A DNA stretch of 23,432 nucleotides from a virus (IMGVR_UViG_2531839127_000024:1-23432), one strand, 5' to 3'; counted from the first letter of the stretch, positions 3,619-9,780 are shown. Notes: a model not told the origin generated them from the letters alone. Program-made: numbers and translations.

Positions 3619-5893
3619 AGCCTCCGGGCGTTTTGTCCCTCCGTCAGCATTTGCTGCAGGCACCGGTAAGGCGTTTACCGGTGCTTATGCATGGAACGCG
3701 CCACGCGAGGCCGTCGGGCGCGAAAGACTCCTTACACGTGACGAGATGCGTCAGGTGCAAGGTGTTTTATCCACGATTAACCGCCTGCCTTACTTTTTGC
3801 GCTCGCTGTTTACTTCACGCTATGACTACATCCGGCGCAATAAAAGCCCGGTGCACGGGTTTTATTTCCTCACATCCACTTTTCAGCGTCGTTTATGGCC
3901 GCGCATTGAGCGTGTGAATCAGCGCCATGAAATGAACACCGACGCGTCGTTACTGTTTCTGGCAGAGCGTGACCACTATGCGCGCCTGCCGGGAATGAAT
4001 GACAAGGAGCTGAAAAAGTTTGCCGCCCGTATCTCATCGCAGCTTTTCATGATGTATGAGGAACTCTGCGATGCCTGGGTGGATGCGCATGGCGAAAAAG
4101 AATCGCTGTTTACGGATGAGGCGCAGGCGCATCTGTATGGTCATGTTGCTGGCGCTGCACGTGCTTTCAATATTTCCCCTCTCTACTGGAAAAAATACCG
4201 TAAAGGACAGATGACCACGAGGCAGGCATATTCTGCCATTGCCCGTCTGTTTAACGATGAGTGGTGGACTCATCAGCTTAAAGGCCAGCGTATGCGCTGG
4301 CATGAGGCGTTACTGATTGCTGTCGGGGAGGTGAATAAAGACCGTTCTCCTTATGCCAGTAAACATGCCATTCGTGATGTGCGTGCGCGCCGCCAGGCAA
4401 ATCTGGAATTTCTTAAATCGTGTGACCTTGAAAACAGGGAAACCGGCGAGCGCATCGACCTTATCAGTAAGGTGATGGGAAGTATTTCTAATCCTGAAAT
4501 TCGCCGGATGGAGCTGATGAACACCATTGCCGGTATTGAGCGTTACGCCGCCGCAGAGGGTGATGTGGGGATGTTTATCACGCTGACCGCGCCGTCAAAG
4601 TATCACCCGACACGTCAGGTCGGAAAAGGCGAAAGTAAAACCGTCCAGCTAAATCACGGCTGGAACGATGAGGCATTTAATCCAAAGGATGCGCAGCGTT
4701 ATCTCTGCCGCATCTGGAGCCTGATGCGCACGGCATTCAAGGATAATGATTTACAGGTCTACGGTTTGCGTGTCGTCGAGCCACACCACGACGGAACGCC
4801 GCACTGGCATATGATGCTTTTTTGTAATCCACGTCAGCGTAACCAGATTATCGAAACCATGCGTCGCTACGCGCTCAAAGAGGATGGCGACGAAAGAGGA
4901 GCCGAGCGAAACCGTTTTCAGGCGAAACACCTTAACCGGGGCGGTGCTGCGGGGTATATCGCGAAATACATTTCAAAAAATATCGACGGCTATGCACTGG
5001 ATGGTCAGCTCGATAACGATACCGGCAGACCTCTGAAAGATACTGCCGCGGCTGTTACTGCATGGGCGTCAACGTGGCGCATCCCGCAATTTAAAACGGT
5101 TGGTCTGCCGACAATGGGGGCTTACCGTGAACTACGCAAATTGCCTCGCGGCGTCAGCATTGCTGATGAGTTTGACGAACGCGTCGAGGCTGCACGCGCT
5201 GCCGCAGACAGTGGCGATTTTGCGTTGTATATCAGCGCGCAGGGTGGGGCAAATGTCCCGCGCGATTGTCAGACTGTCAGGGTTGCCCGTAGCCCGTCGG
5301 ATGACGTTAACGAGTACGAGGAAGAAGTCGAGAGAGTGGTCGGCATTTACGCGCCGCATCTCGGCGCGCGTCATATTCATATCACCAGAACGACGGACTG
5401 GCGCATTGTGCCGAAAGTTCCGGTCGTTGAGCCTTTGACTTTAAAAAGCGGCATCGCCGCGCCTCGGAGTCCTGTCAATAACTGTGGAAAGCTCACCGGT
5501 GGTGATGCTTCGTTACCGGCTCCCACACCTTCTGAGCACGCCGCAGCAGTGCTTAATCTGGTTGATGACGGTGTTATCGAATGGAATGACCCGGAGGTCG
5601 TGAGGGCGCTCAGAAGCGCATTAAAACACGGTCTGAGAAGACCAAACCGTCAGCAAAGAAACGGAAACCCGTTAAAACCGCATGAAATAGCGCCATCGGC
5701 CAGACTGACCCGGTCAGAACGATTGCAAATTACCCGTATCCGCGTTGACCTCGCTCAGAACGGTATCAGGCCGCAACGATGGGAGCTTGAGGCGCTGGTG
5801 CGTGGCGCGACCGTAAATTATGACGGGAAAAAATTCACGTATCCGGTCGCTGATGAGTGGCCGGGATTCTCAACAGTAATGGAGTGGACATGA
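3608..5893 (+). CDS. A: Rolling-circle replication initiator A (761 aa)
   Basis: From ATG 3608 the protein starts MAVKASGRFVPP and is exactly 761 aa, matching P2 gpA as I recall it; contains HWHMMLF (HUH-like) motif. Track start at 3566 is TTG. Confidence 0.9.
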   Translation: MAVKASGRFVPPSAFAAGTGKAFTGAYAWNAPREAVGRERLLTRDEMRQVQGVLSTINRLPYFLRSLFTSRYDYIRRNKSPVHGFYFLTSTFQRRLWPRIERVNQRHEMNTDASLLFLAERDHYARLPGMNDKELKKFAARISSQLFMMYEELCDAWVDAHGEKESLFTDEAQAHLYGHVAGAARAFNISPLYWKKYRKGQMTTRQAYSAIARLFNDEWWTHQLKGQRMRWHEALLIAVGEVNKDRSPYASKHAIRDVRARRQANLEFLKSCDLENRETGERIDLISKVMGSISNPEIRRMELMNTIAGIERYAAAEGDVGMFITLTAPSKYHPTRQVGKGESKTVQLNHGWNDEAFNPKDAQRYLCRIWSLMRTAFKDNDLQVYGLRVVEPHHDGTPHWHMMLFCNPRQRNQIIETMRRYALKEDGDERGAERNRFQAKHLNRGGAAGYIAKYISKNIDGYALDGQLDNDTGRPLKDTAAAVTAWASTWRIPQFKTVGLPTMGAYRELRKLPRGVSIADEFDERVEAARAAADSGDFALYISAQGGANVPRDCQTVRVARSPSDDVNEYEEEVERVVGIYAPHLGARHIHITRTTDWRIVPKVPVVEPLTLKSGIAAPRSPVNNCGKLTGGDASLPAPTPSEHAAAVLNLVDDGVIEWNDPEVVRALRSALKHGLRRPNRQQRNGNPLKPHEIAPSARLTRSERLQITRIRVDLAQNGIRPQRWELEALVRGATVNYDGKKFTYPVADEWPGFSTVMEWT

Positions 5894-6378
5894 TGGCAAA
5901 AATTCACGAGGTAAAGCTGCACGCAAAATATTTCGACCTTGTACTGGAAGGAAAAAAACGCGCAGAGTTTCGGAAAAATGACCGTAATTATGAGCGCGGG
6001 GACACGTTGATTTTGCATGAATGGGTGCAGGGTGTGTTTACGGGGCGAAAGGTTGAAGCCCGGATAACAGATGTTACTGACCTGTCAGACTGGCTGGAAG
6101 ATTATGTCTTGCTAAGTATTGAGCTGCTTAATACGGGCGCATATAAGATTGTGAACTGGAAAGAACTTAGTGAACGTGGTCTGGTATTCAGAATTAATCA
6201 TGAAATTATGCATCAGCTCGGCCTTGCTGTTATGTATGAACCAGAGACGGGCTGTCTGGCGGGGCAGTGGTTGCTGCGGATGGGATATGGAACTATTCAG
6301 ATGAACAGGTGGAGCGTGCAAAGCAAAACGGGTGGCTTGGATAATGCACAGAATACCAGGCGAGATACCGCACCATAA
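5890..6378 (+). CDS. ASCH/DUF3850-like protein (P2 orf91-like N-terminus) with about 70-aa C-terminal extension
   Basis: ATGATG at 5890-5895 overlaps the A stop; GGAG RBS at 5881; N-terminus MAKIHEVKLHAKYFDLVLEGKKRAEFRK is ASCH-like. 162 aa versus 91 aa for P2 orf91. Confidence 0.65.
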   Translation: MMAKIHEVKLHAKYFDLVLEGKKRAEFRKNDRNYERGDTLILHEWVQGVFTGRKVEARITDVTDLSDWLEDYVLLSIELLNTGAYKIVNWKELSERGLVFRINHEIMHQLGLAVMYEPETGCLAGQWLLRMGYGTIQMNRWSVQSKTGGLDNAQNTRRDTAP

Positions 6379-6397
6379 AACTAAAAATATCAAGCTG

Positions 6398-6550
6398 ATG
6401 GCTATTGTTCAGCGTTTACAGCGGATTATGGTCAACGAAAATCTGACGCCCGATGAGCTGGTCGGGTGTGCCGAAATAGTTCGGGATAATTACGGGCGGC
6501 TTAACTATATCGGTCAGTCCAGAGTTGCGCCACCACCACGAAGACGATAG
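6398..6550 (+). CDS. Hypothetical small protein (50 aa), doubtful
   Basis: ATG-initiated ORF at the backbone/cargo junction; no convincing RBS. Confidence 0.2.
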   Translation: MAIVQRLQRIMVNENLTPDELVGCAEIVRDNYGRLNYIGQSRVAPPPRRR

Positions 6551-6773
6551 AGAACGCCGCCAGTCGTGAAACTTGTTTTCAGGGCTGGCGGGGTTGAACA
6601 ACGAGCGTAGCGAGGCGTTAGTTGACAGACATATTTTTACTGCGTTGGTGCCGGTTTTTGACGGTTGAAAGGAGTTAGGTTGGAGAGCTAACAACTTACA
6701 AATATTCAAAAGTAAGCATCCTGTTGCTAACATGAGGTCGATTTTTTATGTGGATGATGCAAAAAGGATAGCT

Positions 6774-7505
6774 ATGGATACTATAATCGCTTTTCTATCA
6801 CTCGCTTTTTTCGTTGCTTTCTTCATCGGGTTAATCAAGCCATCACTGGTGCGAATGCCAAACCGCAAACGTGCAAGTGCGGTTTATCTCGGAGGAGGTT
6901 TTGTATTGAGCATAATTGGTTCAATACTCTATCCAACAGAAAAAAGCCAGCCAGTTGATAAAACTGAAACATCAACCGTTGCAGAACATAAAGTCCAAAA
7001 AACATTCGAATATGGTGAAAAAACACTCAAGGAATATCGGAACGAGTCAAAGAAAACACGACACGATATTGTGAATAGTTACATTGATTTTAAGGAAGTT
7101 CCAGCCACCGCGTCAGATGCGTTTTATGCCTGCATGAGTGAATATACATTTACCAAAGATGATGAGTTGAAACTCGGTGATGTTCTTGGGTGGTGCTTTA
7201 ATGATTATGAAAATGACCCGAATTCACTAAACAATAAAATCAATCTTGATACATTTCAGAGTAATTTTAGTGGTTGGGATGGTTCTTATCGTCCATTGGA
7301 AAAACTAATTAAAGATAATATGAACGATGATTCATCTTATAAACATGTATCAACGGTATATCATCTGGTTTTGAATAAAGACCCGCATGCCATTGTGAAA
7401 ACCACGTTTCGCGGAACTAATGCTTATGGCGGAGTGGTGAAACAGACGATTGCTGCGCGTGTTGATATAAAAACTGGTAAGGTGATATCAATCATAGATA
7501 ATTGA
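6774..7505 (+). CDS. Cargo protein 1: unrecognised membrane protein, two N-terminal TM helices plus about 180-aa soluble domain (243 aa)
   Basis: AAAGGA RBS 5 nt upstream of ATG 6774 (in-frame alternative ATG 6732); hydrophobic segments IIAFLSLAFFVAFFIGLI and VYLGGGFVLSIIGSILY separated by basic loop RMPNRKRAS; AT-rich codon usage unlike the phage backbone. Confidence 0.7.
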   Translation: MDTIIAFLSLAFFVAFFIGLIKPSLVRMPNRKRASAVYLGGGFVLSIIGSILYPTEKSQPVDKTETSTVAEHKVQKTFEYGEKTLKEYRNESKKTRHDIVNSYIDFKEVPATASDAFYACMSEYTFTKDDELKLGDVLGWCFNDYENDPNSLNNKINLDTFQSNFSGWDGSYRPLEKLIKDNMNDDSSYKHVSTVYHLVLNKDPHAIVKTTFRGTNAYGGVVKQTIAARVDIKTGKVISIIDN

Positions 7506-7514
7506 TATCTTACA

Positions 7515-7555
7515 ATGCCGACGCTGAATATTTAATTGGGTGTCGGCATTTTTTG
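7515..7555 (+). terminator. Putative intrinsic terminator after cargo gene 1
   Basis: Stem ATGCCGAC (7515-7522) pairs with GTCGGCAT (7542-7549), followed by TTTTTT; loop is long (19 nt), so moderate confidence. Confidence 0.45.
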
Positions 7556-7614
7556 ACTATTAGAGCGGCAGAACCGAGATTTGTTGCGTATGAGATTAGC
7601 ACTGCGAGAATGTT

Positions 7615-8397
7615 ATGAAAATTATAAACCAACTTAAGAAGTTTGATAAGAAAAGAACGCCAGATGATGGCCGTATTAGTTTGTTATATGAAAACGCGAT
7701 TAAGTATGATATGTACTCTGTATATATTAAAGATAAAAATGATACAGAATACCTCTTTGACTGTTTGGTTGATGGGAAGATAAAGGCTTTTAAATGGGAT
7801 GATGAGGAGCGTAGATTTCATATAAGTTCATGCTTGGATATTTCTGAGGTTACGCCTGATTCTTTTTTTGGTGTTTACTACTACCGTGCGCATGAGTTGC
7901 GATTTAACTCTTTAAATGATTTAACATTTTTAAGGGAGTTGTTCTTTAGAGTAAAGTCTAATTATGAAAATATAAAGTTTAGTCGTGAAAAATATATTTA
8001 TCGACAGCAAAAAAAAGAAATAACTGATGTGATGTTTGTTCTCTCAACGATTATAAGAATGTATCGTGAATGGGATGCTCAAACTGTGTTTAGTGAGTTT
8101 TCAATAATGACCGAAGTCGCTGGTAGTTTATGGGTATACCATGACGATAAAAACAGGATGCGTAAAGAGCTTCGTTTATGCCTGAATTCTCTTGTTCAGA
8201 ATGGAGATCTTGTTGAAACAAGTAGTGGATTTAGGCCAACAGGAAAGGCACTGAACACAATATCTACATTCAATAAAGATGAGGTGCGGTACAGAGAGAA
8301 TTTGAGTACTCAGAAGAAAATGTTTTGGGCTACTTTTTTCGCAGCAGTCGGCGGCGTAGGAAGTATGATTGCAGCTATAATAGGGCTTCTAAAATGA
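7615..8397 (+). CDS. Cargo protein 2: unrecognised protein with cytoplasmic N-domain and single C-terminal TM helix (260 aa)
   Basis: ATG ORF; very AT-rich; C-terminal hydrophobic segment FWATFFAAVGGVGSMIAAIIGLL preceded by KK; no catalytic motif recognised. Confidence 0.7.
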   Translation: MKIINQLKKFDKKRTPDDGRISLLYENAIKYDMYSVYIKDKNDTEYLFDCLVDGKIKAFKWDDEERRFHISSCLDISEVTPDSFFGVYYYRAHELRFNSLNDLTFLRELFFRVKSNYENIKFSREKYIYRQQKKEITDVMFVLSTIIRMYREWDAQTVFSEFSIMTEVAGSLWVYHDDKNRMRKELRLCLNSLVQNGDLVETSSGFRPTGKALNTISTFNKDEVRYRENLSTQKKMFWATFFAAVGGVGSMIAAIIGLLK

Positions 8398-8557
8398 GCC
8401 AACAAAATCGTATGATGAAGTATTGAGTGAAAAGCATTCTTTATATGCATTATTTTGCATGCAACATATGCTATACATTCTAGCTATGAATTGTCAGACG
8501 TGGCAGTACTTCTGTATGGTAATGCAACTGCATTAAAACCGCCCCATGAAGCGGGCG

Positions 8558-8576
8558 GGCGAGGCGGGGAAAGCAC
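8558..8576. other. cos cohesive-end site (19-nt P2-type cohesive end GGCGAGGCGGGGAAAGCAC)
   Basis: Exact 19-mer that I recall as the P2 cohesive end, followed by G/T-rich packaging-region sequence, located just downstream of Q as in P2. Confidence 0.65.
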
Positions 8577-8718
8577 TGCGCGCTGGCGGTGGTGCTGATT
8601 TTATTTTTTCAGCGTCTGAGCGCGTCGTGAAGGCGCTTAGTCTGCCCGTTGAGGCGTTGGTGTGTCTGCGGGGTGTTTTGTGCGGTGGTGAGCGTGTGAG
8701 GGCGTGATGACGGGGTGT

Positions 8719-8740
8719 AAAAAAGCCGCCCGCAGGCGGC
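8719..8740 (-). terminator. Intrinsic terminator of the P-Q operon
   Basis: On the minus strand GCCGCC-TGCG-GGCGGC hairpin followed by TTTTTT, 6 bp downstream of the Q stop. Confidence 0.7.
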
Positions 8741-8745
8741 GATGT

Positions 8746-9780
8746 TCAGCCGTTGTCAGTGTCCAGTGAGTAGTTTTTAAAGCGGATGACCTCCTGACCG
8801 AGCCAGCCGTTTATCTCGCGGATCCTGTCCTGTAGCGGGATAAGCTCATTACGGACAAAGACCTTTGCCACTTTCTCAATATCACCCAGCGACCCGACGT
8901 TCTCCGGCTTGCCGCCCATCAACTGAAAGGGGATACGGTGCGCGTCCAGCAGGTCAGCGGCGCTGGCTTTTTTGATATTAAAAAAATCGTCCTTCGTTGC
9001 CACTTCACTGAGCGGGATAATTTTAATGCCGTCAGCTTTCCCCTGCGGGGCATAGAGAAACAGGTTTTTAAAGTTGTTGCGGCCTTTCGACTTAACCATG
9101 TTTTCGCGAAGCATTTCGATATCGTTGCGATCCTGCACGGCATCGGTGACGTACATGATGTATCCGGCATGAGCGCCATTTTCGTAATACTTTCGGCGGA
9201 ACAGCGTGGCCGACTCATTCAGCCAGGCAGAATTAAGGGCGCTGAGATATTCCGGCAGGCCGTACAACTCCTGATTAATATCCGGCTCCAGCAGGTGAAA
9301 CACGGAGCCGGGCGTGAAGGCTGTCGGCTCGTTGAAGGACGGCACCCACCAGTAAACATCCTCCTCCACGCCACGGCGGGTATATTTTGCCGGTGAGGTT
9401 TCCAGTCTGATGACCTTACCGGTGGTGCTGTAACGCTTTTCCAGAAACGCATTACCGAAAACCAGAAAATCCAGCACAAAGCGGCTGAAATCCTGCTGGG
9501 AAAGCCACGGATGCGGGATAAATGTCGAGGCCAGAATATTGCGTTTAACGTAAATCGGTGAGCTGTGATGCACGGCAGCACGCAGGCTTTTTGCCAGACC
9601 GGTAAAGCTGACCGGTGGCTCATACCATCTGCCGTTACTGATGCACTCGACGTAATCCAGAATGTCACGGCGGTCGAGTACCGGCACCGGCTCGCCAAAG
9701 GTGAATGCTTCCATTTTCGGGGCGCTGGCAGTCATTGTTTTCACCGCTGGCTGCGGTGTTTTCCCTTTTTTCTTACTCAT
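8746..9780 (-). CDS. Q: Portal protein (344 aa)
   Basis: Length identical to P2 gpQ; ATG overlaps the P stop (ATGA); position next to cos. Confidence 0.9.
   Translation of the reverse strand: MSKKKGKTPQPAVKTMTASAPKMEAFTFGEPVPVLDRRDILDYVECISNGRWYEPPVSFTGLAKSLRAAVHHSSPIYVKRNILASTFIPHPWLSQQDFSRFVLDFLVFGNAFLEKRYSTTGKVIRLETSPAKYTRRGVEEDVYWWVPSFNEPTAFTPGSVFHLLEPDINQELYGLPEYLSALNSAWLNESATLFRRKYYENGAHAGYIMYVTDAVQDRNDIEMLRENMVKSKGRNNFKNLFLYAPQGKADGIKIIPLSEVATKDDFFNIKKASAADLLDAHRIPFQLMGGKPENVGSLGDIEKVAKVFVRNELIPLQDRIREINGWLGQEVIRFKNYSLDTDNG

Follow-up and report, generated by a model that had tools for sequence, protein, structure and literature searches.

An autonomous cargo gene in the gpA-gpQ hotspot of a P2-like prophage encodes a predicted tail-anchored protein with a plausible role in defence

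The final gene before cos in a P2-like prophage, referred to here as cargo gene 2 (7615..8397, + strand), encodes an orphan protein of 260 aa that is predicted to be tail-anchored by its C-terminus. It is autonomous from its neighbouring genes, and its product belongs, by homology search, to a large family that has no Pfam model and rides on phages and plasmids. From this context, a role of the gene in defence is plausible. The window, i.e. the whole stretch of DNA that was analysed (IMGVR_UViG_2531839127_000024:1-23432; 23,432 nt), is a P2-like (Peduovirus) prophage of Escherichia coli, and all 79 phage records matched by megablast with positions 5800-9000 are P2-like. The chromosome of E. 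coli E70 carries the 1.8 kb around cargo gene 2 at 100% identity, and five more complete genomes, IHE3034 and APEC O78 among them, match this stretch at 98.6-99.8%.

In the RefSeq annotation of IHE3034 and E70, the gpA replication endonuclease is followed by a DUF3850/ASCH protein, a small hypothetical protein and two further hypothetical proteins, which are the cargo genes; beyond them, the portal protein and the terminase ATPase subunit lie on the opposite strand. The DUF3850/ASCH protein (5892-6344, + strand), with DUF7415 as its C-terminal segment (Pfam E = 1e-17 and 3e-12), is followed, between gpA and the cargo genes, by the 68-aa hypothetical protein at 6344-6550 (+ strand). These two genes correspond to P2 Orf91 and are apparently semi-conserved backbone and not variable cargo. 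Cargo gene 1 (6774-7505, + strand; ORF listed from 6732) encodes 243 aa with hydrophobic N-terminal helices at aa 3-21 and 34-52 and a positively charged loop between them, so that its C-terminal domain of ~180 aa is predicted to be periplasmic; the protein matches phrog_3403 and no Pfam family.

Downstream of cargo gene 2, the backbone conserved among P2-like phages starts again at ~8517, and the right-hand boundary of the hotspot is given by the 19-mer GGCGAGGCGGGGAAAGCAC (8558..8576, + strand), which we take to be the P2 cohesive end (the P2 record gives the coordinates of cosR and not its sequence). The 160 nt from the stop codon of cargo gene 2 to cos (8398-8557) are AT-rich, with conservation across P2-like phages limited to the last ~40 nt, and in a consensus scan two minus-strand terminator-like hairpins (8558-8539 and 8740-8725) flank cos. 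The same type of scan yielded no convincing sigma-70 promoter in the region directly upstream of cargo gene 2 (7555-7614). According to the P2 record, old and tin occupy this same cos-proximal position between gpA and gpQ in P2, so the label "cargo", which a reading of the sequence alone had given the gene, is apt. The gpA-gpQ region is a hotspot of anti-phage systems (Rousset et al. 2022, PMC9122126). With a GC content of 34.7%, compared with ~53% for gpA and the portal gene, cargo gene 2 is also marked by composition as acquired cargo.

The open reading frame begins with ATG, and the only library match of its product is phrog_7611, which has no assigned function and is matched over the full length (E = 5.1e-164; residues 1-260 against positions 1-260 of a 260-position profile). 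A word-indexed search returned ~30 homologous clusters of 45-63% identity and equal length. Against homologues ~60% identical, dN/dS is 0.12-0.13, at a distance where dS is saturated; against near-identical copies, which differ at a handful of sites only, it is 0.36-0.49. Judged by the phrog_7611 match, the conserved length, the many homologues and the low dN/dS, cargo gene 2 is a real gene under purifying selection and not a chance ORF. Among related loci, one homologue has a frame break (L035, 7827-8584) and another is truncated to a 126-aa ORF (L037, 7965-8345), so the gene is occasionally lost through decay.

The best 19-residue Kyte-Doolittle window of the protein comprises aa 241-259 (FFAAVGGVGSMIAAIIGLL; mean 2.20), with a single residue (K260) beyond it. 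Since the runner-up window over the entire protein reaches only 0.88, neither a signal peptide nor a second transmembrane helix is predicted. K234 and K235 immediately precede the helix, and the 25 preceding residues comprise six K/R and three D/E. We infer membrane insertion with an N-in topology by the positive-inside rule (K234, K235), which would place the body of ~235 aa in the cytoplasm. The predicted protein thus has a lone hydrophobic helix near its C-terminus and no signal peptide, the hallmarks of a tail-anchored protein. The sequence-only reading had proposed just this single C-terminal helix preceded by lysines, together with an N-terminal domain of ~235 aa lacking nucleotide-binding or nuclease motifs, and on both points our analysis agrees with it: Walker A, HxH and CxxC motifs are absent from the protein, and no family in the libraries covers the domain. 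A profile and structure-based homology search, suggested there as a check, found no housekeeping or structural homologue: scans of Pfam and NCBIfam assigned no family, the best PADLOC-DB v2.0.0 match (DruD; E = 0.021 over 45 residues) was not significant, and PDB searches with the single sequence gave nothing significant. In GenBank phage records, tblastn with the protein found no match.

The breadth of the family became visible in an exhaustive phmmer search of the protein against 1.84 billion representatives. Whereas the word-indexed search alone had suggested a narrow enterobacterial family, phmmer returned 340 clusters at 50% identity with E <= 1e-3, 66 of them with E <= 1e-10. Nearly all members are 250-300 aa long (about 265 aa is typical) and align end to end. 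A profile search started from 88 diverse members added more proteins, all annotated as hypothetical and lacking both Pfam domains and fusions to other domains; the named sources of further members include Flavihumibacter (Bacteroidota) and the betaproteobacteria Oxalicibacterium, Denitratisoma and Rubrivivax. Searches of Pfam, NCBIfam and PADLOC with 24 close or 88 distant homologues gave no convincing family match. The PADLOC matches of the 88 members were isolated, concerning one member each with E > 0.001, and PDB profile searches with the family returned nothing beyond low-complexity transmembrane matches.

The C-terminal helix (aa 236-259; 8320..8391, + strand) is conserved in the family: each of the 88 distant members examined ends in, or close to, a hydrophobic segment. 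In a FSALAAIGSAYAAF-type subgroup the score of this segment falls to 1.35-1.5, a borderline value for spanning the membrane. A conserved polar/small stripe runs along the helix. Thr occupies position 240 in 73 of the 88 members, and Ser or Ala in the rest; position 247 is small (A, G, T or S) in 87; position 250 is polar in 80 (Q in 48, S in 21, T, N or D in 11); and position 251 is Ala in 48. These positions are 3-4 and 7 residues apart, and therefore all fall on one face of the helix. In a single transmembrane helix, such a conserved polar and small face is a mark of specific helix-helix contact. The pattern suggests that the tail-anchor helix self-associates or binds a partner in the membrane and is not a passive anchor; the conserved helix is, at any rate, probably functional.

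Directly before it lies a charged, membrane-adjacent helix (aa 216-235; 8260..8319, + strand) with the motif YEeeERRH......Q[RK], which ends in K234 and K235. Family conservation is highest in the C-terminal half of the protein, where the consensus in window numbering reads W173..H176-P.....L.L.SLV.SGDL......Y..TGKAL.TL.eYEeeERRH......Q[RK]...LT. The best-conserved cytoplasmic segment (~aa 134-215; 8014..8259, + strand) is predicted to form a helix-helix-helix-beta-hairpin, with a weak winged-helix-like assignment. Across the 88-sequence alignment L143 never varies, and at least 90% of the sequences keep H176 and A212. The N-terminal region (~aa 1-133; 7615..8013, + strand), which matched no known family, has a low-confidence prediction of four strands forming a sheet (aa 36-75), with helices after it. 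Conserved positions on the N-terminal side are P16, I21, Y34, W61, the Y/H88-Y90 cluster and L143.

Both AlphaFold models were computed from a single sequence and are therefore of low confidence, with a pLDDT of 50.8 for the full-length protein and 51.5 for aa 126-236. At this level (pLDDT ~51) they agree on the sheet at aa 36-75, the helices and the helix-helix-helix-beta-hairpin at ~aa 136-208, and they show one long helix from ~aa 210 to the C-terminal end. Foldseek found no significant match in the PDB for the model of aa 126-236 (best E = 0.16, TM-scores <= 0.4). The non-significant list consists mostly of winged-helix proteins (LmrR, CggR, MepR, the cullin WHB domain, histone H1, STIV F93 and YodB). 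Together with the motif L..L...G-[DN]-L......Y..TGK, this list gives a weak hint of a winged-helix domain. Among profile matches, a winged helix-turn-helix appeared as HTH_45 in one member only (E = 0.002 to 0.03), and the PDB profiles yielded nothing relevant.

Using a 29%-identical member (P0045) as tblastn query, we located the family on plasmids, most of them conjugative, of Klebsiella, Enterobacter, Salmonella, Yersinia, Agrobacterium, Shewanella and Burkholderia, and in 11.9-kb filamentous Vibrio phages. In one of these, Vibrio phage 10N.237.312.D05_PE002 (Tubulavirales; L042, 5752-6531), a member ~21% identical to the cargo gene 2 protein is encoded in the accessory region, immediately behind the zot-like gene I, so the family rides single-stranded DNA phages besides tailed phages and plasmids. 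The genomic neighbourhoods vary, and some of them contain defence-related genes. The Klebsiella plasmid copy has a restriction endonuclease and a DNA-binding protein as neighbours, and the Yersinia plasmid copy (40% identical to the cargo gene 2 protein) lies between HEPN and DUF2971 proteins, near an integrase and HigBA. Other copies have nothing but transposases, recombinases or toxin-antitoxin genes next to them. Chromosomal copies stand beside an IS110 transposase (Denitratisoma) or in an integrase-bounded island with an Xre-type antitoxin. In a Rubrivivax genome (L050, 7462-7983) and a related metagenomic contig (L051, 181-822), a gene of 173-213 aa without a Pfam domain ends ~18 nt before the family member and may be a subfamily-specific partner. 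No constant partner gene was found across the family contexts examined. This patchy, single-gene distribution on mobile elements is typical of genes in inter-element conflict, which is not proof of such a role.

The best explanation of these observations, which we hold tentatively and as somewhat short of probable, is that cargo gene 2 encodes a stand-alone lysogenic-conversion protein with anti-phage or anti-mobile-element activity, which would protect the lysogen, or the host of a plasmid, from its place on the cytoplasmic side of the inner membrane. The following mechanism, each step of which we infer, would then apply. Cargo gene 2 would be a self-contained "moron" whose product sits N-in in the inner membrane with its 235-aa body in the cytoplasm. 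This body, made up of an alpha/beta region and a winged-helix-like segment close to the membrane, would recognise a component of the infecting phage, upon which the C-terminal helix, via its stripe face, would join itself or a partner in the membrane. As an outcome, either the membrane would be compromised (abortive infection) or the establishment of the incoming genome would be blocked. We favour a defence reading because of the hotspot position, the foreign GC content, the autonomy of the gene, the spread over mobile elements, the helix stripe and the background rate in the related P4 hotspot, where six of eight randomly chosen unknown loci proved defensive (PMC13586616).

A bolder version of this reading, rather doubtful as a whole, extends it to the entire family. 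Its members would be widespread single-gene tail-anchored immune proteins of phages, plasmids and integrative elements in several phyla, with the cargo gene 2 protein as the first recognised member. The winged-helix-like module would detect nucleic acid or protein of the invader on arrival, and oligomerisation through the helix stripe would lead to depolarisation or a block of establishment. Such a minimal one-protein sensor-effector would be of a kind not yet described.

Several observations speak against defence: there is no PADLOC match, the protein is missing from the DefensePredictor tables that were searched, the fold assignment is weak, the helix of one subgroup is borderline in hydrophobicity, P2 hotspots hold non-defence cargo too, such as partition systems and a cytolethal distending toxin (PMC9122126), and several plasmid or chromosomal contexts of the family lack recognisable defence genes. 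The last two also speak for the alternative that cargo gene 2 is non-defence cargo, i.e. a membrane-tethered regulator, a factor for element maintenance, envelope physiology or virulence, or a neutral passenger. Machine learning predicts 15-32% of unknown P2 proteins to be antiviral (2026 study, PMC13586616) and hence most of them not to be, and the lack of catalytic motifs and the disrupted copies in L035 and L037 would equally suit a gene without immune function. Against this stand the purifying selection, an architecture kept across very distant hosts and the patchy distribution on mobile elements only, which are typical of conflict genes; moreover, a membrane-fixed transcription factor without a periplasmic sensor or a release mechanism would be unusual. 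We regard non-defence cargo as unlikely, though as an explanation of real weight.

A second alternative stays within inter-element conflict and dispenses with cell killing. In non-abortive superinfection exclusion, the protein would hinder the entry or release of phage or plasmid DNA at the inner membrane, e.g. by binding DNA or an ejected protein. A prophage cargo with a predicted membrane anchor suits such a role, as does a possible nucleic-acid-binding, winged-helix-like segment ~20 residues from the membrane. Relatives are found on conjugative plasmids and filamentous phages, which likewise profit from excluding kin elements, and the frequent neighbour, cargo gene 1, has the typical shape of an exclusion protein with its two transmembrane helices and predicted periplasmic domain. 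Known exclusion proteins, T4 Imm, P22 SieA and HK97 gp15 among them, are for the most part smaller and carry their transmembrane helices at the N-terminus. The cargo gene 2 protein departs from this pattern and shows no homology to them in PHROGs and Pfam scans; with one residue past the helix, it would also make no contact with tail or ejection proteins in the periplasm. We consider exclusion distinctly unlikely.

The relation between the two cargo genes bears on a further alternative, a two-gene membrane system in which cargo gene 1 would face the periplasm and cargo gene 2 the cytoplasm. Between the genes lies a terminator-like hairpin with a 12-bp stem followed by U6 (7514..7554, + strand), with a dG of -21.6 kcal/mol and a z of -5.5 (0 of 200 shuffles folded as well); by its form, it is an intrinsic terminator. 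We compared 36 related loci, all of them taken from IMG/VR except for one, which belongs to a Pantoea genome. In every sufficiently long one of them the cargo gene 2 homologue lies between gpA and the portal (Q)/terminase (P) genes and is the last gene before the cos-proximal backbone. A cargo gene 1 homologue stands directly upstream in 20 of the 36 and is missing from the other 16. In L028-L032, for example, the cargo gene 2 homologue follows straight after gpA as the sole cargo, and in L002 and L024 a small ORF of 146-160 aa precedes it. In three E. coli P2-like phages (L019, 6519-7767; L026; L034), where the cargo gene 2 homologue is 55% identical, the upstream genes are instead a 104-aa HTH-like ORF and a 316-aa ORF, the N-terminus of which presumably resembles reverse-transcriptase/Abi-type proteins.

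Some evidence does link the pair. All six complete E. coli genomes with this cargo gene 2 allele also carry cargo gene 1, and in 13 loci (L011-L015, L017, L018, L020, L021, L023, L027, L035 and L036) a diverged pair (cargo gene 1 72-84%, cargo gene 2 55-62% identity) stands beside another type of gpA (~36% identity), so the two genes appear to have travelled together for some time. The portal and terminase genes of these loci are 80-88% identical, and the retention of pair and portal/terminase beside a divergent gpA indicates that the replication module was exchanged while the cos-side block was kept together. Conversely, cargo gene 1 occurs in 84 of 5,426 complete E. coli genomes and in 78 of these 84 without cargo gene 2; no cargo gene 1 homologue was found near the family members outside P2-like phages, including the 40%-identical Yersinia plasmid copy; and the two were curated as separate systems, #68 and #12, the latter being cargo gene 1 (210 occurrences, "2 TM", outside the tested-systems table; Rousset et al. 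2022, PMC9122126). With a strong terminator between the genes and the pair adjacent in 20 of 36 loci, neither obligate co-occurrence nor obligate co-transcription with cargo gene 1 was found. Shared descent of one hotspot arrangement is, in our judgement, the simpler explanation of their co-occurrence, and a two-gene system is quite improbable.

Should the stand-alone anti-phage reading be right, cargo gene 2 would be a very compact single-gene addition to the repertoire of the P2 hotspot, and a function would be at hand for a family of at least 340 clusters that is now without a Pfam model, a solved structure or a name. The stripe residues suit point mutants asking whether a single tail-anchor helix can be an effector, and being small and autonomous, the protein is cheap to test and a fair experimental candidate. 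If it is not defensive, it would be a reminder that hotspot cargo need not be immunity.

The protein had already been catalogued as the P2-hotspot "System #68" (Table S5B in Rousset et al. 2022, Cell Host Microbe, PMC9122126), described as a single protein without Pfam and with "1 TM" and recorded 62 times in 18,150 E. coli loci. The System #68 sequence is identical to that of the cargo gene 2 protein at 259 of 260 residues (I3V) and comes from the same gpA-gpQ location. When peptide fragments were searched in the supplementary tables of that study, they matched Table S5 only and were absent from the tested-systems table. New beyond this entry are the breadth of the family, as delineated by homology search, the stripe conserved in the helix and the evidence that the gene is independent of System #12. 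A literature search by protein accessions or phrog id found no mention of the protein, another joining "tail-anchored" and "anti-phage" found no paper, and the protein is absent from the searched supplementary tables of the DefensePredictor paper. A 2026 NAR study of the P2 and P4 hotspots assayed unknown genes from P4 only, and none of its new systems shares the tail-anchor architecture (PMC13586616).

Among known systems, P2 Tin had been brought up by the sequence-only reading for its similar size. That comparison is right and meaningless (253 aa for Tin, 260 aa here), and the Tin-like function derived from it finds no support. Tin acts by poisoning gp32. The P2 record notes that it blocks the growth of T-even phages. 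Like cargo gene 2, tin is non-essential cargo of the lysogenic-conversion type between gpA and cos. Unlike cargo gene 2, which lies on the gpA strand after a terminator and whose product ends in a predicted transmembrane helix, tin is encoded on the minus strand within the old-tin mRNA, and its product has neither a transmembrane helix nor a hydrophobic C-terminus. Homology between the two was rejected, with a BLASTP E of 5.4 and an hhalign probability of 0.08% for the 88-sequence family profile against Tin (NP_046797).

Defence acting through transmembrane helices is known from lambda RexB and from the transmembrane effectors of CBASS, Pycsar and retron systems. The P2-like phage AC1 carries a 2TM+1TM+TIR defence system (PMC9122126). 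With such components cargo gene 2 would share the combination of cytoplasmic sensing and a membrane part, both putative here, and it shares coding on mobile elements or in hotspots; the likeness is one of design only. It differs from them in being a single gene without a signalling enzyme or nucleotide-binding domain, in its one transmembrane helix at the extreme C-terminus and in lacking PADLOC homology. The tail-anchored inner-membrane proteins ElaB, YqjD, YgaM, Flk and DjlC of E. coli have a cytoplasmic N-terminal body, a single transmembrane helix at the C-terminus and a very short periplasmic tail. Their cytoplasmic domains are unrelated to that of cargo gene 2, for which the Pfam scan gave no DUF883 or J-domain match. 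The predicted topology of the cargo gene 2 protein matches theirs, whereas they are encoded by chromosomal housekeeping or stress genes and cargo gene 2 is low-GC cargo of mobile elements.
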